Source: Deltaproteobacteria bacterium RIFCSPLOWO2_12_FULL_60_19 (lineage in GTDB: Bacteria; Desulfobacterota; Binatia; UBA9968). From it: a DNA stretch of 64,000 nucleotides. The translations under genes were made by a program, and so were the position numbers. The stretch spans positions 6,270 through 70,269 of the forward strand of contig MGSS01000051.1 of NCBI GenBank assembly GCA_001798595.1, in the 5' to 3' direction. The notes below the pieces were generated by a model. It did not search any database and had not been told where the DNA came from. It saw only the letters and a program-made list of their open reading frames with translations. The number at the start of each line of letters is the position of its first letter. Positions within the stretch are counted from its first letter, which is position 1. Positions 20,443 to 54,665 of the stretch are shown here, in pieces.

Positions 20443-21639
20443 ATGACAACCTTCGTCGAAAGGCTGTTCGGCATCCTGCTCCTTTTTCTGGGCCTTGGCT
20501 CTTGTACCGCTGCTCTGGCCCCTTTCGGAACCGAAGAGGCTCTTCGCCTTGACAACGATGAGAAGAGAATCTGGAACAGAGCGAAGGAGGAACAAAAGAG
20601 GCTCGATAACAGCGGCCAAATCTATCAAGCTGCCGCATTGACGGCGTATGTGAATGAGGTGGCCGCAAAGATCACTCCCGAGCCCCTCAAGCAAAAGGGT
20701 CTCTCCTTTCAGATTAAGATCATCAAAAACCCCTTGCTCAATGCATTCGCGTTCCCCCATGGAGTTATCTATATCCACACCGGCATGCTTGCCAGGATGG
20801 AGAACGAGGCGCAGCTGGCCGCCATCCTGGGTCATGAAATGAATCACGTGGTCCGCAGACACATGGTTCAGCAAATCAGGGCTGTCCAGAACGCAGCCGG
20901 GACACTTTCAGCGCTCCAGGTGGTGCTTTTACCTCTTGGCGCTGTGGGGTCCATTGGACAGCTGTTGGGCGCGGTAGGCGCCGTCGCGGCCGTTTCCGGC
21001 TATTCCAAGGCGGCTGAGGAAGAATCGGACCGAGAGGGACTCGCCTGGATGGTAGCTGCCGGGTACGATCCTAGAGAGGCGCCAAAACTCTTCGACTATT
21101 TGAAAAGAGATATCGAGGAGTTGAAAAAGGACGAGCCGTTCTTCTTTGGAAGTCACCCTCGTGTTGTGGAAAGGCAGGACAGTTATAACCGTCTCCTACA
21201 GACCAGATATCGCGACGTCAAGGGTATCGCGGAAACTGAGAGATTTATGGACAGCGTTCTTCTCGTTCTGCTAGACAACGCCGCGATGGACCTGTCGTTC
21301 GGCCGGTTCGCCCTCGCACAGGAGACGATTGAAAAGTTCTTAAAAAGACAACCCGATAGCGCGCGAGCTTACTTTACCCTTGGAGAGGTCTACCGTCAGA
21401 GAAATCAAAAAGACGACGTAGAGAAGGCCGAAAAACACTATCGTCAGGCGAGCCAGTTCGACGCCGCGTACGCGCCGCCCTACCGGGGGCTAGGTCTCAT
21501 ATGGCTGAAGCAGGGGCACAAGAAACAAGCCCGGGAAGCCTTCGAGAAATATCTTTCCCTGGCGCCTCAGGCGGAGGATAAGGGATACATCCAGCAATAT
21601 CTGCAGGATCTTCCGAGCAGCGAGGCTAACGCATCATGA
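20443..21639 (+). CDS. M48-family zinc metallopeptidase with C-terminal TPR domain (BepA/YfgC-like)
   Basis: HEMNHVVRRH (HExxH). Signal peptide. TPR-like C-terminus (AYFTLGEVYRQRNQKDD...). Confidence 0.75.
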   Translation: MTTFVERLFGILLLFLGLGSCTAALAPFGTEEALRLDNDEKRIWNRAKEEQKRLDNSGQIYQAAALTAYVNEVAAKITPEPLKQKGLSFQIKIIKNPLLNAFAFPHGVIYIHTGMLARMENEAQLAAILGHEMNHVVRRHMVQQIRAVQNAAGTLSALQVVLLPLGAVGSIGQLLGAVGAVAAVSGYSKAAEEESDREGLAWMVAAGYDPREAPKLFDYLKRDIEELKKDEPFFFGSHPRVVERQDSYNRLLQTRYRDVKGIAETERFMDSVLLVLLDNAAMDLSFGRFALAQETIEKFLKRQPDSARAYFTLGEVYRQRNQKDDVEKAEKHYRQASQFDAAYAPPYRGLGLIWLKQGHKKQAREAFEKYLSLAPQAEDKGYIQQYLQDLPSSEANAS

Positions 21640-22199
21640 AAAGATTCAACCTCTGGCTTCTGGTTCTGGCCATTCTGCCGGCCGGATGCGCCCCATGGAC
21701 AATGGTCGGCGGCAGCTATCTTACGAACTCGGAGAACTACGAGGTCAATCTTCCCAGCGGTTGGCGAAAACATAACCAAAGCCGGGATGTTCTTCGCATA
21801 ACGAGAGACGGGCTGACTGTCCAGGAGATCCTCATCGGCAGATGGCCGTTGGATAAAGACCCTCCGCACACGAAAAAGAAACTTGCGAAGGGCATGTTGC
21901 CACAGGAAGCGGCCGAGGTGGTGGTCGACGATTTTCGCTCGAATAGCAGCCTGGACAACTACCAAATAGCGGAAAACAATCCCTCCAAAGTCGGCGGGCA
22001 CGCGGGCTTTAAACTTGCTTATGGATACCAGACCAAGGCAGGCTTAAAGAAAAAGGGGATCTACTACGGGGTCCTGGTGGACAAGTGGCTCTATTTTCTC
22101 AACTACGAAGCCCCCGATAGGCACTATTTCGGCAAGGACCGCGAGGTTTTCGAAAAGATCAAAGAGAGCTTCAGGGTTCTCAGATCCGGTCAGGCTTAG
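21636..22199 (+). CDS. Hypothetical lipoprotein
   Basis: MKRFNLWLLVLAILPAGCAPW lipobox. Start overlaps the M48 stop (ATGA). Confidence 0.4.
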   Translation: MKRFNLWLLVLAILPAGCAPWTMVGGSYLTNSENYEVNLPSGWRKHNQSRDVLRITRDGLTVQEILIGRWPLDKDPPHTKKKLAKGMLPQEAAEVVVDDFRSNSSLDNYQIAENNPSKVGGHAGFKLAYGYQTKAGLKKKGIYYGVLVDKWLYFLNYEAPDRHYFGKDREVFEKIKESFRVLRSGQA

Positions 22200-22274
22200 C
22201 AGAACCGATCTATCCGCCAAGCGAGGGAAATGCCCAGGCGGCCGCAACACAAACCGCAAACAACCCTGCGCCGC

Positions 22275-24089
22275 TCAGCTTTCGTAGGGCAGCGTCACGG
22301 TGAAAGTCGAACCCGTCCCAGGCTCGCTTTCTACGACAACCTGCCCGCCGAGCATTTCAGTAAATTTCTTAACGATATAAAGTCCCATTCCCACTCCTCC
22401 GAACGCTCTGGTATTCGAACTATCCACCTGGTGGAATCTTTCAAAGATGAGGGGAAGATGCTCCTGGGGAATCCCCACGCCGGAATCCGCGACTTGGAAC
22501 ACGACTTTTTTAGAGCCCGGAACGCATCGAGCTGAGATAGTTACAGCCCCTCGTTGGGTAAACTTGACCGCATTATTTATGAGATTCTGAAGCACATGCT
22601 TGACCTTTTCACTATCGGTTTTGATCACCGGCAGGTCACTTGGATAGTCCCATCTCAAAGTCAGATCCTTTTCCACGGGAACCCAATAGCTGGATCTCAA
22701 ATCCTCCAAGAAAGGAACCAAACCGACCTCGGAGGTCACCAACCTCTCACTTTCGCCTTCCATTTTCGTGACCTCCAAAAGGTCGGTGATCATGGATAAC
22801 TGATCGCCGGCGCGGTCTACGATTTTTTGCAAAACTTCGGCCTGCTTCGGATTGACCTCTCCCAACATCTGCTCTTTCATCAGTTGGGCGTAGCCCACGA
22901 CCACATTCAGCGGCGTGCGCAGCTCGTGGGACATGACGCCGAGAAATTCATCTTTAATTTTGTTTGCTTTGACTATGCGCTCATAGAGCTGAGAGTTGTG
23001 GATGGCTATCGCGGCCTGGCCGGCCAGTGCGGTGAAAAACTGAACCTCTTCACCGCCGAATTCGCGCTCCTCATTGGAATAGAAAACGATATCTCCGATG
23101 GCTTTCCCCTTAACGATCAGCGGCACTCCCAGATAGGAAATAGGATGGGCTGCCTGAAGAAACGCGACGTGGCGGGTGCGCGGATCAGCACGCGCATTCC
23201 GAACCACCAAGGGTGCCTTAGTTTGAAAGACTACGCCCGTCAAGCCAAGCTCTTTTTCCCATTGTGCCAACTTCTGCGGGCTTCCGTCGAACTTGCGGCT
23301 GGCGACGGGTTCTAACTCGCCGGTCGCCGGATTGTATAGCCTGATGACCGCCGCGGCATACGGGAGCAGAGCGTCCAGCTTTTCAAGGAAGAGGTCTAAA
23401 ACTGTTTGGAGGTCAAGTGTCGAAGTCATGGCGCTGCCGATTTCATGGAGAGTGCTGATTCGATCAAGATTCCGCCGGATCTGCTCTTCGGCTCGCTTGC
23501 GGTAGGCAAATTGCTCTGCTTGCTCCTTGGAGATTTTTTGCAGCCATTCAGTCTGGGCGAAGTAACCGTAAAAAATAGCGATCGTGAACGGAAAACTGCT
23601 GCGCAGATAGACGGTCAGATCGCCGATCTCTCCCGATTTAAGAAGAAAGTAGGCGTACAGAACGGGAGCCAAGATGGCGATCCCCAGCAGCGCGCTAAAG
23701 CTCCGACATATGGAAGAGAGAAAAATCGTCACAAAGCACACAAGGTAGAAGTCCGGGCCGGCGCCCCGGCTGACGACCAGGGATGCGGACAGACAAAGGG
23801 TATCGACAACGATCAGGAGCGCATGAAAGGAAAACGTTTCGAAGCGTCGCTCATCGACAAAGTACAGAGCGCAATTGGACAACAGATAAACAACAAGAAA
23901 AGCATGCGTCGTGGCGGGGGTGACCCATCGCAGTTGAGAGAAAAGCAGCAAATAGGAACAGATGATAATCAGCGGCCATCGGATGCGGATGACGGTCATC
24001 TTTCTCGGGGCATCGAGAATTCCGAGCGCCCATGACAGGGCCGGAGAAGAGGTCGTGGTTTGAGCGAGTTCCATTTGCCCTGTACTCAA
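22275..24089 (-). CDS. Sensor histidine kinase: N-terminal multi-TM sensor, GAF domain, HisKA and HATPase_c
   Basis: H-box MSHELRTPLNVVVGYAQLM. N/G1/G2 boxes (NLINNAVKFT, DSGVGIP, GGVGMGLYIV). About 6 N-terminal TM helices. No adjacent response regulator. Confidence 0.8.
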   Translation of the reverse strand: MSTGQMELAQTTTSSPALSWALGILDAPRKMTVIRIRWPLIIICSYLLLFSQLRWVTPATTHAFLVVYLLSNCALYFVDERRFETFSFHALLIVVDTLCLSASLVVSRGAGPDFYLVCFVTIFLSSICRSFSALLGIAILAPVLYAYFLLKSGEIGDLTVYLRSSFPFTIAIFYGYFAQTEWLQKISKEQAEQFAYRKRAEEQIRRNLDRISTLHEIGSAMTSTLDLQTVLDLFLEKLDALLPYAAAVIRLYNPATGELEPVASRKFDGSPQKLAQWEKELGLTGVVFQTKAPLVVRNARADPRTRHVAFLQAAHPISYLGVPLIVKGKAIGDIVFYSNEEREFGGEEVQFFTALAGQAAIAIHNSQLYERIVKANKIKDEFLGVMSHELRTPLNVVVGYAQLMKEQMLGEVNPKQAEVLQKIVDRAGDQLSMITDLLEVTKMEGESERLVTSEVGLVPFLEDLRSSYWVPVEKDLTLRWDYPSDLPVIKTDSEKVKHVLQNLINNAVKFTQRGAVTISARCVPGSKKVVFQVADSGVGIPQEHLPLIFERFHQVDSSNTRAFGGVGMGLYIVKKFTEMLGGQVVVESEPGTGSTFTVTLPYES

Positions 24090-24378
24090 GTCGTGCCGCC
24101 ATCCGTGGCTATGATCGACGGATCGACCTCCGAAGAATCCGCAACGAGCCGCGCCTGCGATGATGACAAATGTCCAACGCCGAACCTAAACCCGCAGGAA
24201 GGTGACAGTGGACGGCGTTTGATCGAGAATAGTCCAAGCGGTTCAAAAATTCCAGGGAAGATAGATGGTGGGCCTGTCTGGAACAATAGAGGAATAGATC
24301 AGTAGACCGCATTTACGCTTTCTCCATTGTTCCAATGTCGAATGCTCCAATGCTCTAAATTTTTCCTACGGAAAAATT

Positions 24379-24455
24379 TGGTGGGCCCACCTGGATTCGA
24401 ACCAGGGACCTACCGGTTATGAGCCGGTGGCTCTAACCAGCTGAGCTATGGGCCC
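24379..24455 (-). tRNA. tRNA-Met (anticodon CAT), elongator-type or tRNA-Ile2 precursor
   Basis: Reverse complement GGGCCCATAGCTCAGCTGGTTAGAGCCACCGGCTCATAACCGGTAGGTCCCTGGTTCGAATCCAGGTGGGCCCACCA. The 7-bp acceptor stem has a G1-C72 pair, so it is not an initiator tRNA. CAT anticodon, encoded CCA. Confidence 0.85.
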
Positions 24456-24460
24456 GTAAG

Positions 24461-24500
24461 AAAATTTTAGATTTTGGATTTTCGATTTTGGATTAAAAGC
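24461..24500. repeat. Short AT-rich heptad repeat tract (same family as copies A-D), next to tRNA-Met
   Basis: AAATTTTAGATTTTGGATTTTCGATTTTGGATT is a tandem (G/A)ATTTT(G/A/C) heptad run. Confidence 0.5.
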
Positions 24501-24547
24501 TCGCAGGTTCGCGCGCGTTTTGCAAGTACGGCATCCCGATCCGTGCG

Positions 24548-26293
<1,746 letters not shown>

Positions 26294-48842: not shown

Positions 48843-48918
48843 ATCTCCAAAGGTCTATGGCACATCCGCGTAGAAAATTAAAGGAGATGGAACCATCGGA
48901 CGGGCTAACAATCGGTTC

Positions 48919-48944
48919 TGGTGCCCGGAGCCGGGGTCGAACCG
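48919..48944 (-). repeat. 26-nt exact copy of the 3' end of tRNA-Leu (candidate att site / direct repeat)
   Basis: TGGTGCCCGGAGCCGGGGTCGAACCG is identical to 50743-50768, the 3' end of the intact tRNA-Leu. The sequence diverges immediately after. Confidence 0.7.
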
Positions 48945-49096
48945 ACGAGTAAGGCAAAGTTGATCATGCGGTTTGATTGATGCGCCGCTCCAGATCCCGC
49001 ACGGACTCCAATACGTTCTGAATAGGCGGGTTTACATTGAATCAACGCTCGGCCAATTCGCGGAACAACGAGTGCATCCAGTCCACGGCTTCACTT

Positions 49097-49130
49097 TCTG
49101 TCAGAAAAACTACACACTTTTTCTGACAAA
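49097..49130. promoter_or_regulatory. Palindromic operator-like site (13/14-bp arms, 8-bp spacer) upstream of the islet ORFs
   Basis: TTCTGTCAGAAAAA-CTACACAC-TTTTTCTGACAAA. Confidence 0.45.
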
Positions 49131-49333
49131 ATTTAACACGCGATACAAGGCTAAAACCGTCGTTACGGTGAGACTGCCATTACAGGCCACTGGTTCGCCT
49201 TGACACGGACGCCTGCCTCCCCTACGATACAGGGCCATGACACGAACCACACCATCTACCAGACGAGGCACGCTCGAAGGCGCCATCTAATAAGTGGTCG
49301 TTATCAAAGGGTTTTTAGTATTCAGGCTGAAAG

Positions 49334-49705
49334 TTGGCGGAAACCGATTGGCAGGAGCCAAAGTGGGTGGGCATAAAGAAGCATCGCCCCCCGCCAGGAG
49401 TCCCGTGGGAGGATGTGGTCAAAGCCACCGCAGGGAAAAAGCCAGCTCGTTATCACCCGACGTATTCCTTGGACCGTGCGCGCGAGGAGTTGGAGCTCCG
49501 TTGCGTGCGACAAGGAACGGAATTGAGCATGAGTGGCACTGACCCGCAGACGAAGAGATGTTTTTTTATGAGGATGAACGCGGTAATCGGCGCGAGTAAC
49601 GGGGAAGAAACGGAGTATGTGTTTGGCGAATACTTGGTCAGCGGAGAGGTCCACGGCCGTCCAATCACAGTTCAAGAGCTTCGGAGAAAGGGGGCGGAAA
49701 TATGA
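49334..49705 (+). CDS. Hypothetical protein, islet ORF1. Start uncertain; ATG at 49528 with an AAGGAA RBS is an alternative.
   Basis: Open frame ending 1 nt after the ORF2 start (stop/start overlap ATGA). No recognisable motif. Confidence 0.3.
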   Translation: MAETDWQEPKWVGIKKHRPPPGVPWEDVVKATAGKKPARYHPTYSLDRAREELELRCVRQGTELSMSGTDPQTKRCFFMRMNAVIGASNGEETEYVFGEYLVSGEVHGRPITVQELRRKGAEI

Positions 49706-50076
49706 AAGTTGAGCTGCATCTGCCGGAAAACGTCGTGGTCAAAGGAGCGCTGTATACGACGACCGATCCCGCTTATCTGGTCCAGGACATGCTCGAGATC
49801 GACCTGCCAAACGGCATTACTATCGATGTCGGCTGGTATCCGGAATCCGACCCCGCGGGTTCGTTTCAGGTCGTCGTGTTCCGAGATCATTGGGATAACC
49901 AACTCAGAGAACCCTTTGAGACAAAATCTATCGAAGATGTGACACGCGAAGTGAAGCGTCTGGCGGAGGAATACCAAAACCGTACTGTTACATTGCCTTG
50001 TTCCGCAACCAGCATATCGTCGTTCAAACCGCCGCAGTCGGAAAAGGGCTTCGATCTTCAGTTGGCGGCTGCGTAG
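49702..50076 (+). CDS. Hypothetical protein, islet ORF2 (124 aa)
   Basis: Strong RBS GGGGGCGGAAAT before the ATG. Local GC ~52%. No recognisable family. Confidence 0.45.
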   Translation: MKVELHLPENVVVKGALYTTTDPAYLVQDMLEIDLPNGITIDVGWYPESDPAGSFQVVVFRDHWDNQLREPFETKSIEDVTREVKRLAEEYQNRTVTLPCSATSISSFKPPQSEKGFDLQLAAA

Positions 50077-50077
50077 T

Positions 50078-50521
50078 ATGCCTAAGCCGGTCTATATCAT
50101 TTGTTCCCAGGGCGGATCAGAGGACAAGAATACCGGCTTGGTAAGCCTATTCAACGTAGTCGAAAAAATCCAGATCATAGAGAGCCCGCCACCTGCGTCT
50201 GGACAGCAACCCCCTCCTAAAACACCCACCTTTCGCACACTGGCTGTGTGGATGAGAGCCGATTCGGATAAACCGGAGGACGAATTCGAATTCGAAGTTG
50301 CCCTGTCTGTGCCGCCGACCGATCGAGAAATCGTTGGCGGCACGGGACGTTTCTCATTTACAAAACCGCTGCACAGGTTTTTCCTTGACTTTTTTGGTCT
50401 ACCCATCGAGGGGCCGGGAACCTTGCTCGTGGAAAGTAGGATTCGAAAAGTTGGCGACAAGGAATGGCTCAGACAGAGCTATCCTATTTTTTTGGAACGA
50501 GTACAAGAGCAAACGAAGTGA
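50078..50521 (+). CDS. Hypothetical protein, islet ORF3 (147 aa), distant paralog of 51069-51476
   Basis: Starts 2 nt after the ORF2 stop. Shares MP-x6-C...K-x-G-x-VSL...FR...FE-EV pattern with the ORF on the other side of tRNA-Leu. Confidence 0.45.
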   Translation: MPKPVYIICSQGGSEDKNTGLVSLFNVVEKIQIIESPPPASGQQPPPKTPTFRTLAVWMRADSDKPEDEFEFEVALSVPPTDREIVGGTGRFSFTKPLHRFFLDFFGLPIEGPGTLLVESRIRKVGDKEWLRQSYPIFLERVQEQTK

Positions 50522-50742
50522 AGGCTTCGTTAGGGTAGGCATAGAGTCACTAAGGACGAACAAATTCGGCCAAACCCATACCTGGCACATACAATAATCG
50601 CGCACTCAAGGAACCCCATACCGTTAGCAATGCCCCTGGATAGCGCAACGCTCCAGTTATCTTCTTCCGCATACCGGTCTCTTTCGGCTCCGATGAACTC
50701 AGAGAGGGCGTTCACAGCATTAGACAAATTCATTATCGCTTT

Positions 50743-50833
50743 TGGTGCCCGGAGCCGGGGTCGAACCGGCACGGAGCCTTGCGGCTCCTCGGGATTTTAA
50801 GTCCCGTGTGTCTACCAATTTCACCATCCGGGC
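50743..50833 (-). tRNA. tRNA-Leu (anticodon TAA), class II with long variable arm
   Basis: Reverse complement GCCCGGATGGTGAAATTGGTAGACACACGGGACTTAAAATCCCGAGGAGCCGCAAGGCTCCGTGCCGGTTCGACCCCGGCTCCGGGCACCA. The acceptor stem GCCCGGA/TCCGGGC pairs perfectly. Anticodon loop CTTAAAA. Confidence 0.85.
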
Positions 50834-51068
50834 GCGTGCAGAAAAGGCAGAAGGCCCCTCGACCGTTCGACGGCGCTCACGGCTCAAGGCAGACAAAAGG
50901 CAGGAGGCAAGAGGCCCCCTACCCCCACCGCCAACAGGATTGTAGACTACACAAATGAGCGAGAAATGAAAACCGGCGTAATCCAGCTCCGAAGCAACCA
51001 AACAGCGGTGTCACGGCCTGGGCAACCGGAATGTTCAAATCTTTAGAGGAGGCAGACCTGAAGCGTGA

Positions 51069-51476
51069 TCACTGAACTAAAGGAGGGCGGAGGACCTCTG
51101 CCTCGAATGGCAGAACGTGGAATGTTTGGCTATCAGAAAGAAAAGCAAACTCGTAGCCGCCGGGCCTCGGCAGCTTAAGGCTATCCATCCCCAGATTAAT
51201 ATCGGCAGTATAAAGATTTGTTACTTGGTCCCGTGTTTCAACGTGTGCGACGCCACGAATCTGGAAAATTCTCTGTCCTTCAGCGCTGCGGAGTTCCACC
51301 ACGATTTGATGATCTCCTTCACCTTCAAAACCCAGCTTCGCAAAAATCCGAAACGGCGGCATCGGTTGACTGAAGTCCGTCACCAAGAACCTACTAAAAA
51401 TTCCCATTAGGCTGACCTTTCCCTTGAGTTCCTGCCTCACATCGTCACAAAGGGCAGCCATTAACGCTCTTGGCAT
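51069..51476 (-). CDS. Hypothetical protein (135 aa), distant paralog of islet ORF3
   Basis: MPRALMAALCDDVRQELKGKVSLMGIF...FRIFAKLGFEGEGDHQIVVEL aligns with MPKPVYIICSQGGSEDKNTGLVSLFNV...FRTLAVWMRADSD...FEFEVAL. Confidence 0.4.
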   Translation of the reverse strand: MPRALMAALCDDVRQELKGKVSLMGIFSRFLVTDFSQPMPPFRIFAKLGFEGEGDHQIVVELRSAEGQRIFQIRGVAHVETRDQVTNLYTADINLGMDSLKLPRPGGYEFAFLSDSQTFHVLPFEAEVLRPPLVQ

Positions 51477-51477
51477 G

Positions 51478-51879
51478 CTAGATACTACCTTCCATATCCT
51501 TGGACCGTTTCATTGCAACTTTCGCCGCTTCCGTCGCACATGTTGCCATCTCTGCCCCTTTATTCTCCGGTCTTAGATCCTCAGGCAAGACAAGCGACAG
51601 CTGCGTGAGAAGGGGGTCCTTGCCCACATAACTGCGATCTATTATTACAAGTGGCACCACTCCACCTTCTTGAACAGGGGTTGGAAGGTTAAATCCTTTG
51701 TCTTTGGCCGTTTCCAGCCATGCATGCAACGCCTCTCTCAGCTCCTTCACCGCTTCCGCTAAAGTCGAGCCAAGGCCGGATAACTCTGGAAGTTCTACAA
51801 AAGTAGCTACAAACTCCCTATCTTCTGGCGACCAAGAAATGTAGTAGCTGTATTGAGGAAGCTCCATTTGCTCTTCCAT
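51478..51879 (-). CDS. hicB: HicB-family antitoxin (UPF0150 N-terminal fold)
   Basis: YSYYISWSPEDREFVATFVELPELSGLGSTLAEAVKELREALHAWLE matches the HicB N-terminal domain. Lies downstream of the HicA-like gene. Confidence 0.6.
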   Translation of the reverse strand: MEEQMELPQYSYYISWSPEDREFVATFVELPELSGLGSTLAEAVKELREALHAWLETAKDKGFNLPTPVQEGGVVPLVIIDRSYVGKDPLLTQLSLVLPEDLRPENKGAEMATCATEAAKVAMKRSKDMEGSI

Positions 51880-51905
51880 GACTACCGCCTCCTTCTTGAA
51901 CTCTC

Positions 51906-52175
51906 TCAGGCTATTATCCCCAACTCCCGTGCCATTTCCAACATCTGGCGAACCTGGTAAGCCTTGGCCTTACCGTTGGGTCCTTTTTGAAGGTTCAAAG
52001 GCCTGGGATACGTGCTGCGTAATTGATGACCGCGTGGATGAAAAAATACAACGTGGCTGCCCCTTCGTCTCGACTCAATCCAGCCCAATTGTGTAGCTAA
52101 CTTGACTGCGTCATCAAACCAGACGTCTTCCGGGTTGCTTTTCGCTGCTCTAAGAAGTGCCTCGTCTATAGCCAT
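51906..52175 (-). CDS. hicA: HicA-family mRNA interferase toxin (YcfA-like)
   Basis: ...LGWIESRRRGSHVVFFHPRG... matches the HicA G-S-H-x-x-F-x-HP core. 89 aa. Confidence 0.6.
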   Translation of the reverse strand: MAIDEALLRAAKSNPEDVWFDDAVKLATQLGWIESRRRGSHVVFFHPRGHQLRSTYPRPLNLQKGPNGKAKAYQVRQMLEMARELGIIA

Positions 52176-52517
52176 TCACACGCACCGCTTATAGCAGGTC
52201 AGCTTTAATATGCAACCTGACCACACGTATGTGTTGACATTCGGGTGGCCGCCGGCGGATCGTCGCCTTTGCCGCCCCTAGGTGGATACAAATTGCGTTC
52301 CTGAGTTCAAGAACCTACGCCGGATCTGGTAAGGACACCGGAGAGCTTGCTCGGATTCACCGCTTTTAGGCCGCGCAATCGTTACAGACTATCTATTAAA
52401 AAACCCTGCTTCCAGGCGGGTCAAAAAGGCCGGACCTGAGCTAAGCCGAAGGTTCCCAGTTGCAAGGCGCACGAAGGTTCGCGAATGGCAAATGGGCCTT
52501 TTTCAACCGCCTGCGAC

Positions 52518-54665
52518 TCAAACAAACAGCGGCGCAAGGACGAGCGTGATCGTGCTCAAAAGCTTGATCAACACGTGGAGGCTCGGCCCCGCCGTGTCTT
52601 TGAACGGATCGCCGACCGTATCGCCGACCACTGCTGCCTTGTGAGTGTCCGAGCCCTTGCCGCCATATTGCCCCATCTCGATAAATTTCTTCGCGTTATC
52701 CCAGGCGCCGCCACTGTTGTTCAGGAACAGCGCCATGAGTATCCCGGCGATGGTGCCGACCATCAAGAAAGCCGCTACCGCCTCGGCGCCGACACCCAGG
52801 AAGCGAAAGGTCACGCCGACGGCGACCGGCATTCCGACAGCGAGAAGACCCGGAACCACCATCTCCTTCAAAGCGCCTACGGTGACGATGTCCACGCACT
52901 TGCCATAGTCCGGCTTGGAGGTGCCCTTGAGAATGCCGGGGTTCTCCTTGAACTGTCTTCGGACTTCGTTGATCACGTAGTAAGCGGCCTTGCCCACGGC
53001 GCGAATGGCGAGCGCGGAAAAGAGAAAGACCAGCATCGCGCCGAGAAGTCCGCCGACAAAAACTTCCGGCTTGGCGATGTTGACCGATTCCAATTTCGCG
53101 CCGTAATGCGCCACCTCGTCGAGATAGGCCGAGAAAAGAAGAAAAGCCGCCAGCGCCGCCGAGCCGATGGCGTATCCCTTGGTGAGTGCCTTGGTGGTAT
53201 TTCCGACCGCGTCGAGACGATCGGTCTTGCGGCGCACCTCCTCCGGCTGCTGGCTCATCTCGACGATTCCGCCGGCATTATCCGTGATGGGACCAAATGT
53301 GTCCATCGCTAAAATATAGGCGGCGGTGCCTAACATACCCATGGTCGCGACCGCGGTGCCGAACAGGCCGGCGTGTGGAACGCCGCTCGCCAGGCCTAAA
53401 TAATAAGAAGCGACGATGGAGATGGAGATAACGACGACGGGAATGGCCGTGCATTCCAGCCCAACCGCCATGCCGGTGATGATGTTGGTCGCCGGTCCGG
53501 TTTGGGAAGCCTCGGCAATGGATCTCACCGGGCGGAATTTGTATTCCGTATAGTACTGCGTGATGTAGACAAACGCCTGGGCCATAGCGATGCCGATGAC
53601 TCCGCAAAGGAAAAAGTAGAACCACGCCGATTCGGCTTCGGGGTGGACTACGGCATCGACGGTGAGAAGCCAACGCGTGGCAATGAAAAATCCGATGACG
53701 GCGAGGAACGTCGTCACGTAGTAGCCGCGGTTGAGAGCGGCCATCGGGTCGCCTTTTTCCTCGGTCTTGACGACCATGACGCCGACGATGGAAGCGATCA
53801 ATCCTAAAGCGCGGGCGACCAGGGGAAACAAAATGCCCTTCAGTCCGAAGTACGGGAACAGGCCGACGCCGAGGATCATCGCGCCGATATTTTCCGCGGC
53901 GGTGGACTCGAAGAGGTCGGCGCCTCTGCCGGCGCAATCCCCGACGTTGTCTCCCACAAGGTCGGCGATGACCGCCGGATTGCGCGGATCGTCTTCCGGT
54001 ATCCCCGCCTCAACTTTCCCCACTAGATCGGCCCCCACGTCCGCCGCCTTGGTGTAGATGCCGCCGCCCAACTGAGCGAACAAAGCGACAAACGAAGCGC
54101 CGAAGCCATAGCCGACGATCGTGAACGGGATTTTCTGCGGGTCGTGGCCCATCGATTGGAGCAGAGCGTAGAGTCCGCCGACCCCGAGCAGGCTCATCGC
54201 GACTACGAACAATCCGGAAACCGCGCCGCCGCGCAGCGCGATGCGCAGCGCGTCATTCAAACTTGTTCTTACGGCCGAGGCGGTGCGGATGTTGGCCCGG
54301 ATCGACACCCACATGCCGATATAGCCAGCGATCACCGAGCACAGCGCGCCGAGCACGAAGGAAAGAGTCGTCCAGAAGGCCAGCTCAAGGGGCGGGACAG
54401 GATCGGCCGAATTCGGCGCGCGCACGAAACCATAAAGGATGAAGATCAACGCCGCCAGCACGACGGCCAGCGTAACGATGGTTTTGTTCTGCCGCGCCAG
54501 AAAGGCCTCCGCGCCTTCTTTGATGGCGTTGGAGATGTCCTGCATCGCTTGTGTTCCCGTGTCCCTACGCAACACCCAGCGCGCCAGGTACACGGCGAAC
54601 ACCAAGGATACAAGACTGATGACGATGACGAATGGGATCATGAGCCAATCCTTTCTCGAAGACAA
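52518..54665 (-). CDS. hppA: Membrane-bound proton/sodium-translocating pyrophosphatase
   Basis: 715 aa, ~16 TM. Conserved GGG/DNVGDNVGD-like motifs (DLVGDNVGDCAGRGADLFES, AVVGDTVGDPFKDTAGPSL). Confidence 0.9.
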   Translation of the reverse strand: MSSRKDWLMIPFVIVISLVSLVFAVYLARWVLRRDTGTQAMQDISNAIKEGAEAFLARQNKTIVTLAVVLAALIFILYGFVRAPNSADPVPPLELAFWTTLSFVLGALCSVIAGYIGMWVSIRANIRTASAVRTSLNDALRIALRGGAVSGLFVVAMSLLGVGGLYALLQSMGHDPQKIPFTIVGYGFGASFVALFAQLGGGIYTKAADVGADLVGKVEAGIPEDDPRNPAVIADLVGDNVGDCAGRGADLFESTAAENIGAMILGVGLFPYFGLKGILFPLVARALGLIASIVGVMVVKTEEKGDPMAALNRGYYVTTFLAVIGFFIATRWLLTVDAVVHPEAESAWFYFFLCGVIGIAMAQAFVYITQYYTEYKFRPVRSIAEASQTGPATNIITGMAVGLECTAIPVVVISISIVASYYLGLASGVPHAGLFGTAVATMGMLGTAAYILAMDTFGPITDNAGGIVEMSQQPEEVRRKTDRLDAVGNTTKALTKGYAIGSAALAAFLLFSAYLDEVAHYGAKLESVNIAKPEVFVGGLLGAMLVFLFSALAIRAVGKAAYYVINEVRRQFKENPGILKGTSKPDYGKCVDIVTVGALKEMVVPGLLAVGMPVAVGVTFRFLGVGAEAVAAFLMVGTIAGILMALFLNNSGGAWDNAKKFIEMGQYGGKGSDTHKAAVVGDTVGDPFKDTAGPSLHVLIKLLSTITLVLAPLFV

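Follow-up and report, generated by a model that had tools for sequence, protein, structure and literature searches.

How did three small genes come to lie between two copies of the end of a tRNA gene, and what might they do for their host? The question is raised by a locus in contig MGSS01000051.1 of Deltaproteobacteria bacterium RIFCSPLOWO2_12_FULL_60_19, within a stretch of 64,000 nucleotides that was analyzed as a whole (the window). A preliminary description of the window, made from its letters alone, had pointed out a low-GC island of about 1.8 kb that is bounded by a direct repeat of the 3' end of tRNA-Leu and carries three open reading frames (ORF1, ORF2 and ORF3). We found that this island, hereafter the islet, is a genuine foreign insertion by site-specific recombination at the 3' end of tRNA-Leu(UAA), with the recombinase now absent. 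We draw this conclusion because the islet combines an exact repeat, a foreign GC content (overall and at third codon positions, GC3) and an empty site in the nearest relative. Its sole cargo is one translationally coupled three-gene operon (the triad; Table 1). We estimate a probability of about 0.6 that the insertion carries an intracellular toxin-antidote module in which ORF3 exerts control through the tail of ORF2.

Insertion at the 3' end of tRNA-Leu(UAA)

The repeat is exact. The window has exactly two copies of the 26-mer TGGTGCCCGGAGCCGGGGTCGAACCG, in direct orientation, and the preliminary description was right that it duplicates the 3' end of the tRNA in the same orientation (26/26 positions). 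No second copy appeared in shuffled versions of the window. Because the ARAGORN call of tRNA-Leu(TAA) spans the right copy, that copy comprises the T-arm, the 3' strand of the acceptor stem and the encoded CCA. Leftwards the repeat can be extended to 34 nt with 32/34 identical positions (48911-48944 and 50735-50768); the final 8 nt of the right arm (50735-50742) are identical at 6 of 8 positions to host DNA downstream of the empty-site tRNA described below. Aligned to the tRNA, the left site shows no resemblance to it beyond the 26-mer, and we therefore regard it as a tRNA end that has been displaced, not as a pseudogene.

The composition of the islet is foreign. The enclosed segment (48945-50742; 1,798 bp) has 52.0% GC, compared with 58.6% for the window and 58-62% for the flanking genes. 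The drop noted earlier is thus real, although the figure of 63% given for the flanks was somewhat high. Codon usage, which had been proposed as a check, gave the same picture: GC3 is 53-63% in ORF1-ORF3 versus 74-82% in eight neighboring host genes. The low-GC tract does not stop at the islet, but runs past the tRNA to about 52500, where it belongs to a separate indel carrying HicA, HicB and DUF6941 genes.

A search of one genome per species with the LOG-family protein encoded beside the left repeat yielded 32 loci. The nearest relative was the Candidatus Binatia metagenome-assembled genome (MAG) JBGPGE010000108 (L001), in which the LOG protein is 95% identical and the flanking DNA 90-94% identical to the window. 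In L001, tRNA-Leu(TAA) ends 76 bp before the LOG start codon, precisely the spacing that separates LOG from the left 26-mer in the window. The 26-mer is found only once in L001, whose tRNA-Leu is 100% identical to that of the window. L001 1229-3277 aligned to window 48944-46896, and L001 1163-1262 aligned to window 50834-50735; the counterpart of the left repeat in L001 is the genuine tRNA 3' end. This is the empty-site allele, with tRNA-Leu next to LOG, that the preliminary description had proposed to look for. That description had also named two observations that would speak against insertion, a lack of size polymorphism among relatives and a 26-mer that is part of a tRNA pseudogene. With a precise empty site in L001, and nothing tRNA-like past the left 26-mer, neither holds. 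Taken together, L001 and the window are a clean natural record of a tRNA gene before and after insertion of an integrase-less element.

Could the islet instead be ancestral, and have been lost from L001 by recombination between the repeats or by mis-assembly? L001 is the only close genome with an empty site. However, loss between two tRNA-end repeats would be excision of the same element and would leave the interpretation unchanged, and the GC3 values of the three islet genes do not fit the genome. Remoter Binatia also keep tRNA-Leu upstream of LOG, 173-2,891 bp apart, without the cassette. We consider it very improbable that there was no insertion. In these distant Binatia the longer gaps are filled by ordinary metabolic genes, with no tRNA-end repeats, and we therefore rejected the tRNA-Leu/LOG interval as a general integration hot spot.

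No recombinase remains in the islet. None of its ORFs matched a recombinase in Pfam or PHROGs, and there was no integrase within +-10 kb (as seen in longer contigs from this population) or among the ten window ORFs of 330-450 aa. The earlier statement that the element, lacking an integrase, is either degraded or mobilized in trans therefore stands. By definition, a cis-mobilizable element (CIME) retains its att sites and has lost its genes for integration and transfer (PMC6323972). The islet resembles CIMEs and decayed tRNA islets (PMC6323972) in its intact attL/attR-like repeats of the tRNA 3' end, its lack of integration and transfer genes, and its foreign composition. It differs in being very small (1.8 kb, one operon), and no cognate integrative and conjugative element (ICE) or integrase that shares its att site was found. 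The islet fits the definition of a CIME and, equally, the stump of a larger element.

Table 1. Features of the islet and of its tRNA target (window coordinates)
Feature	Position	Strand	Remarks
Distal att repeat	48919..48944	-	Displaced copy of final 26 nt of tRNA-Leu(TAA); exact match, 0 expected
Islet left arm, non-coding	48945..49333	+	50% GC; inverted repeat and sigma-70-like site inside
ORF1, 123 aa, free-standing toxin domain, putative RNase	49334..49705	+	Profile match to 8qjc_A
ORF2, 124 aa, candidate cognate immunity protein/antitoxin	49702..50076	+	Predicted alpha+beta domain 1-96, disordered tail 97-124 ending LAAA
ORF3, 147 aa, predicted Ig-like nine-strand beta-sandwich, third operon component	50078..50521	+	Family without Pfam model
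Islet right arm, non-coding, att-proximal, adjoins intact tRNA	50522..50742	+	49% GC
tRNA-Leu(TAA), intact, integration target	50743..50833	-	ARAGORN; proximal att repeat = 50743-50768

A toxin domain, a candidate antidote and a third protein

The three genes lie on the plus strand and are coupled, as described earlier; ORF1 and ORF2 overlap by ATGA, and the spacer between ORF2 and ORF3 is 1 nt and not 2. None of the three had a usable match in Pfam, PHROGs, NCBIfam or PADLOC, and each has homologues in metagenomes.

The preliminary description had recognized no motif in these genes, but ORF1 does have a recognizable relative. Profile comparisons identify it as a stand-alone version of the C-terminal domain of polymorphic toxins of the Salmonella bongori Rhs and Klebsiella S-type pyocin kind. 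A profile built from ORF1 and twelve homologues (A5) matched one solved structure, 8qjc_A, at residues 1426-1526 of 1530 (E=8e-16), that is, over the whole toxin domain. 8QJC is the S. bongori PAAR-Rhs core with its C-terminal toxin, and cloning it required co-expression of the immunity gene that lies directly downstream (10.1101/2024.02.26.582050). The authors could not place the toxin in any family; in their AlphaFold model it adopts an RNase fold, with the CdiA-CT of Yersinia kristensenii as its nearest relative, and they proposed H1437, K1458, H1515 and H1517 as active-site residues (Kielkopf et al., 10.1101/2024.02.26.582050). In the hidden Markov model (HMM) alignment, H17 of ORF1 (in a nearly invariant K-H) corresponds to H1437, and the invariant H107 to H1515. 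The position of H1517 is a conserved Arg in the ORF1 family, and K1458 is not conserved. G86, A87, G90, H107 and P110 are invariant in all homologues. Going by the modeled fold of its relative, ORF1 would be a cytoplasmic RNase.

The S. bongori toxin also led to other relatives. Tblastn with its sequence, the only tblastn query to retrieve them, found the same domain at the C-terminus of S-type pyocins on two Klebsiella michiganensis plasmids (NZ_CP106659 and NZ_CP048110). The ORF1 profile aligned with the pyocin C-terminus with a probability of 97.5% (hhalign, E=8.7e-12).

ORF1 is a bare warhead: it is homologous to the toxin from residue 6 onwards and contains no further domain, in particular no PAAR, Rhs, MIX or signal sequence. 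The S. bongori protein differs in this respect: ORF1 is a free 123-aa protein without the PAAR domain, Rhs cage or autocleavage motif, and it is encoded on a tRNA islet in a Binatia-type MAG, together with a third gene, and not in a type VI secretion system (T6SS) locus. Two starts had been listed for ORF1. The TTG at 49334 gives the long form, of which residues 5-60 are conserved in homologues and align to the Rhs toxin domain; the short start at 49528 was rejected because the 60 residues upstream of it are conserved.

ORF2 lies where an immunity gene would be expected. Each of the two Klebsiella plasmids has a hypothetical gene for a 99-aa protein after the toxin, and in NZ_CP106659 this gene overlaps the stop codon of the annotated pyocin ORF. 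The ORF2 profile gave a weak match to the two 99-aa proteins, aligned from residue 1 over 69 columns (E=1.2e-4, Prob 55%). Based on the conserved gene position and the in-register match, we suggest with moderate confidence that ORF2 belongs to an immunity or antidote family for ORF1-type toxins. The Klebsiella pyocins differ from the triad in that their toxin domain is joined to domains for receptor binding and translocation, the 99-aa protein has no tail, and there is no ORF3. The preliminary description had proposed a cargo for defence, toxin/immunity or anti-defence; the homologies of ORF1 and ORF2 put it on the toxin/immunity side.

Two observations concern the relatives of ORF2. In K. michiganensis NZ_CP048110 (locus L064, 2222-3300), an IS5 transposase gene lies between the S-type pyocin ORF and the segment for its ORF1-like C-terminal toxin; the 99-aa putative immunity gene downstream is still intact. 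A solitary, tail-less ORF2 homologue of 103 aa (P0025, E=2.8e-19) is encoded on a phage contig (locus L038, 10001-10312; Logan SRR30413545), directly upstream of a tailed-phage portal gene. The contig also encodes Terminase_2 and MT-A70 proteins, and has no ORF1 or ORF3. P0025 could be a phage-borne antidote against ORF1-type toxins. A scan of IMG/VR with the ORF2 profile gave no match.

The tail of ORF2 sets it apart. In an AlphaFold model of ORF2 (pLDDT 80), a small alpha+beta domain ends in a helix at residues 77-93 and is followed by the disordered tail. A V/I-S-C-S-S motif is kept in the tail despite the predicted disorder. In the nearest subfamily the tail ends in LAA(A) or VAA, which we take to resemble the ssrA/ClpX C-terminal degron. 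Counted from the invariant IDVGW, 67-84 residues follow in the 12 loci with ORF3 downstream, compared with 46-59 in those without it (the two Klebsiella plasmids, the phage contig, and loci L061 and L062). A long tail is found only where ORF3 follows, which suggests a logic like that of toxin-antitoxin-chaperone (TAC) systems.

ORF3 is predicted to be a nine-strand immunoglobulin-like (Ig-like) sandwich (pLDDT 90, pTM 0.82). A Foldseek search against viral models gave whole-length matches to uncharacterized phage proteins of 134-165 aa (E=8e-8, TM 0.68/0.74). An exhaustive HMM search found 1,337 clusters at E<=1e-3, 176 of them at E<=1e-30; the best 150 of the 1,337 are single-domain proteins of about 105-180 aa, mostly 145-175. 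ORF3 itself has no Pfam match, none of the 61 relatives scanned reached a Pfam threshold, and none of the 61 matched SecB. DUF6941 (PF22091) was the only Pfam family matched by more than one relative (3/61, best E=0.02, far below the gathering score).

The window encodes a DUF6941 protein of its own, in the indel mentioned above. ORF3 resembles DUF6941 in size and in an N-terminal motif (MP+x...C...S-L/F-x-hydrophobic), and the DUF6941 gene in the window likewise follows a toxin-antitoxin pair (HicA-HicB). A direct BLASTP comparison of the two proteins was not significant, nor was hhalign, although it aligned them from Met1 (P=0.016, probability <5%). As the Pfam matches are also below threshold, we do not claim ORF3 as a member of DUF6941, and treat the relation as a lead.

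A member of the ORF3 family also occurs in other company. In loci L065-L067 (ENA ERZ272547xx-ERZ272548xx), an ORF3-family gene (P0120, 174 aa; L065 652-1176) is preceded by genes for a 71-aa Cys-rich protein and a DUF1573-like protein, not by ORF1 and ORF2, and an IS1595-type gene adjoins. The ORF3 family is therefore not exclusive to the ORF1 toxin.

Recurrence of the triad and its possible function

We ran HMMs of the three families over all fetched loci and inspected the gene tables. ORF1-ORF2-ORF3 order, with overlapping or abutting genes, is conserved in at least 12 loci. It was seen in the window population (L043-L051), L033/34, L035-37/52, L039/40, L041, L042, L053, L055/56, L060, L068 and L069. 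L059 has at least ORF2-ORF3, at a contig edge, and one JGI contig fits by gene sizes only. The order is thus kept across many unrelated contigs. Elsewhere the triad has as neighbors IS21, a module of HTH, Phage_rep_O, DnaB and DUF3854 genes, MazE-PIN, or HicAB. L061 has an ORF1-ORF2 pair without ORF3, in a housekeeping context, and L062 has an ORF2-like gene without ORF3. Tblastn searches of plasmids (with ORF1, ORF3 and the DUF6941 protein) and of phages (with ORF2, ORF3 and the DUF6941 protein) gave no matches.

The same cassette was found at another tRNA gene, as the preliminary description had proposed to search for. L039 6367-9562 (GCA_041643115.1, JBGGHG010002434.1, reversed) is a 3.07-kb islet bounded by two identical 63-nt copies, in direct orientation, of the 3' part of tRNA-Ser(CGA). 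Inside it are the triad, in the same orientation relative to the tRNA as in the window islet, HicA/HicB and a truncated PIN-like ORF (PIN by eye); there is no integrase.

Two integrase-less islets with the same triad in the same orientation, at independent sites and with repeat pairs that are still perfect (26 nt at tRNA-Leu, 63 nt at tRNA-Ser), might indicate an autonomous miniature element. Such an element would be natively without an integrase, would hijack resident integrases at tRNA 3' ends and would use the triad as its maintenance module. However, the window islet shares only coding-region similarity with the other cassette loci, and no non-coding or att-arm DNA, so the two tRNA islets cannot be regarded as copies of a single mini-element. 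They also have att sites of different length that lie at different places in the tRNA. Most other triad loci have no tRNA beside them: neither Rfam nor ARAGORN found a tRNA or tRNA fragment next to the cassette in 12 other loci, although 26-nt fragments would probably be missed by these methods. In addition, HicAB and the truncated PIN-like ORF in L039 look like debris of a larger element. We consider a dedicated miniature element unlikely. The debris favors the stump of a larger element: the window islet would be the decayed remnant of an integrative element that retained only its addictive module. Alternatively, it would be a CIME-like element that needs an integrase in trans. No parental element was present in the fetched loci.

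What would the module do? We suggest that ORF2 binds and neutralizes ORF1, as immunity proteins do for the homologous Rhs and pyocin toxins. The two proteins probably work within the cell that makes them, for addiction or abortive infection, and not as a secreted weapon. An intracellular module is the most economical reading because ORF1 has no delivery module, the cassette lies among toxin-antitoxin genes on acquired DNA, and its surroundings in the window are housekeeping genes. The disordered tail of ORF2, with its ssrA-like end in the closest subfamily, would make the antidote labile or dependent on a partner. ORF3 would bind this tail and so decide whether the toxin stays neutralized.

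The idea of a third component that acts through the antidote tail comes from TAC systems. In these, a C-terminal "chaperone addiction" extension makes the antitoxin depend on a chaperone encoded by the third gene, and in HigBAC the chaperone doubles as a phage sensor (PMC5105189, PMC6377645, 10.1101/2024.02.24.581848). HigBAC and CmdTAC (PMC5105189, PMC6377645, PMC11618068, 10.1101/2024.02.24.581848) resemble the triad in the order toxin-antidote-third gene, in a disordered antidote extension that is present only with the third gene, and in their mobile or defence setting. They differ in that ORF3 is predicted to be all-beta and Ig-like and not SecB-like, and that the toxin and antidote families of the triad are unrelated to HigBA or CmdTA. 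Since ORF3 is not SecB-like, TAC is here a functional analogy and not a membership.

The pair itself can be compared with HicAB and other toxin-first type II toxin-antitoxin systems. The islet resembles them in its coupled small genes, the toxin first, a putative RNase and horizontally acquired DNA. It differs in that there is no sequence relation and ORF2 has no recognizable DNA-binding domain. In gene layout, ORF1 and ORF2 fit the type II arrangement of a small toxin gene adjacent to that of a proteinaceous neutralizer, with ORF2 as the putative neutralizer. HicAB pairs were found near both tRNA islets, one 300 bp beyond tRNA-Leu in the window and another within the L039 islet.

Our results might also indicate an interbacterial weapon. 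ORF1 would then be an exported effector (of a T6SS, an extracellular contractile injection system or another route), ORF2 would protect the producer and its kin, and ORF3 would be a loading adaptor or chaperone. All characterized relatives of ORF1 are killing domains of delivered toxins, toxin followed by immunity gene is the order of polymorphic toxins, and ORF3 is present only where the toxin has no fused delivery domain. But ORF1 is a toxin domain and nothing else from residue 6 onwards, the neighbors within +-10 kb are housekeeping genes and include no secretion-system genes, and the triad elsewhere keeps company with toxin-antitoxin genes, insertion sequences and replication modules, not with T6SS loci. 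We know of no T6SS adaptor that is an Ig-like sandwich. On balance a weapon seems improbable, if a little less so than a miniature element.

A further possibility is that the islet is acquired immunity: ORF2 would be selected against Rhs or pyocin toxins of neighboring cells, and ORF1 and ORF3 would be passengers or decaying. Orphan immunity genes are known from mobile elements, and solitary ORF2 homologues (on the phage contig and in L062) and the ORF1-ORF2 pair of L061 are in keeping with it. However, ORF1 is intact, and its His, Gly and Pro invariants are kept in every triad locus over 40-60% sequence divergence, a sign that purifying selection acts on the toxin. The three genes have also stayed tightly coupled. 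These observations make acquired immunity, in our view, more doubtful than a weapon or a miniature element.

Several points count against the toxin-antidote module that we favor, or against parts of it. The homology between ORF2 and the Klebsiella proteins is weak, and the toxin family has no known biochemical activity; its assignment as an RNase is a structure prediction in one preprint. No DNA-binding domain (helix-turn-helix, ribbon-helix-helix or AbrB) was matched by Pfam in 13 ORF2 homologues, so classical type II autoregulation is not evident. PADLOC-DB 2.0 gave no match at E<=1 for six small proteins around the tRNA. The two-gene version in L061 indicates that ORF3 is not essential for neutralization, and ORF3-like genes also occur without ORF1 and ORF2 (L065-L067). 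ORF3 is not SecB-like, and the proposal that it binds ORF2 is made by analogy. The ORF3-bearing loci may share one ancestor, in which case the correlation between tail and ORF3 could reflect a single event. Finally, as the two tRNA islets have no common non-coding DNA, there is no sign of a dedicated mini-element with conserved att arms.

Only the third gene is new; the islet and the toxin-immunity pair add new members to known types. Also new, as a variant, is the combination of the pair, its antidote tailed, with a third protein that is predicted to be Ig-like. The finding links the killing domains of weapons (Rhs proteins, pyocins) with intracellular toxin-antitoxin and defence modules on mobile DNA, fields that are usually kept apart, and it offers a name, and an activity that can be tested, for three genes of the "hypothetical" class that turn up repeatedly in soil and aquifer metagenomes. 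More tentatively, the ORF3 family, perhaps together with DUF6941, might comprise widespread non-SecB third components that dock on antidote tails and gate toxin release, for example by sensing phage proteins. Rhs- and pyocin-type warheads would then have been recruited into TAC-like abortive infection, with HicA-HicB-DUF6941 as a second example. We give the idea of a third component some weight because HicA-HicB-DUF6941 parallels the islet operon, but the wider proposal is doubtful. If ORF3 is indeed a regulator or sensor that binds the tail, the TAC principle extends beyond SecB-like chaperones, and DUF6941-type genes beside toxin-antitoxin pairs are perhaps explained.

Other features of the window

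The left arm of the islet contains a near-perfect inverted repeat at 49096-49131, with 14-nt arms (TTCTGTCAGAAAAA and TTTTTCTGACAAAA) and an 8-nt loop, and a sigma-70-like site, TTGACA-17-TACGAT, at 49200-49228, approximately 105 nt before the start of ORF1. The two might serve as operator and promoter. Scans for promoters and terminators found no excess over shuffled sequence (1 promoter found, 1.3 expected), and the TTGACA-17-TACGAT site is a candidate by position only.

A low-GC region elsewhere in the window (20950-24650, about 53% GC) adjoins tRNA-Met (24379-24455) and contains genes for an M48 peptidase/TPR protein and a GAF histidine kinase, followed by rpoD. We rejected it as an island, as it looks like ordinary chromosome.

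The indel on the 5' side of tRNA-Leu (50835-52504) is separate from the islet and replaces 352 bp of L001. It has 52% GC and a GC3 of 49-52%, and is flanked by an imperfect direct repeat of 22 nt (50987-51008 and 52511-52532; 18/22), the second copy of which overlaps the stop codon of an H+-PPase gene. Its genes, all on the minus strand, form an abutting operon of HicA (51906-52175), HicB (51478-51879) and DUF6941 (51069-51476); RNase toxin, antitoxin and small protein parallel the layout of the islet operon. A co-occurring strain variant (L047, 2019-2411) has a DUF6941 gene of 130 aa, compared with 135 aa in the window, at a different spacing from HicB, which suggests micro-heterogeneity of this region within the population.

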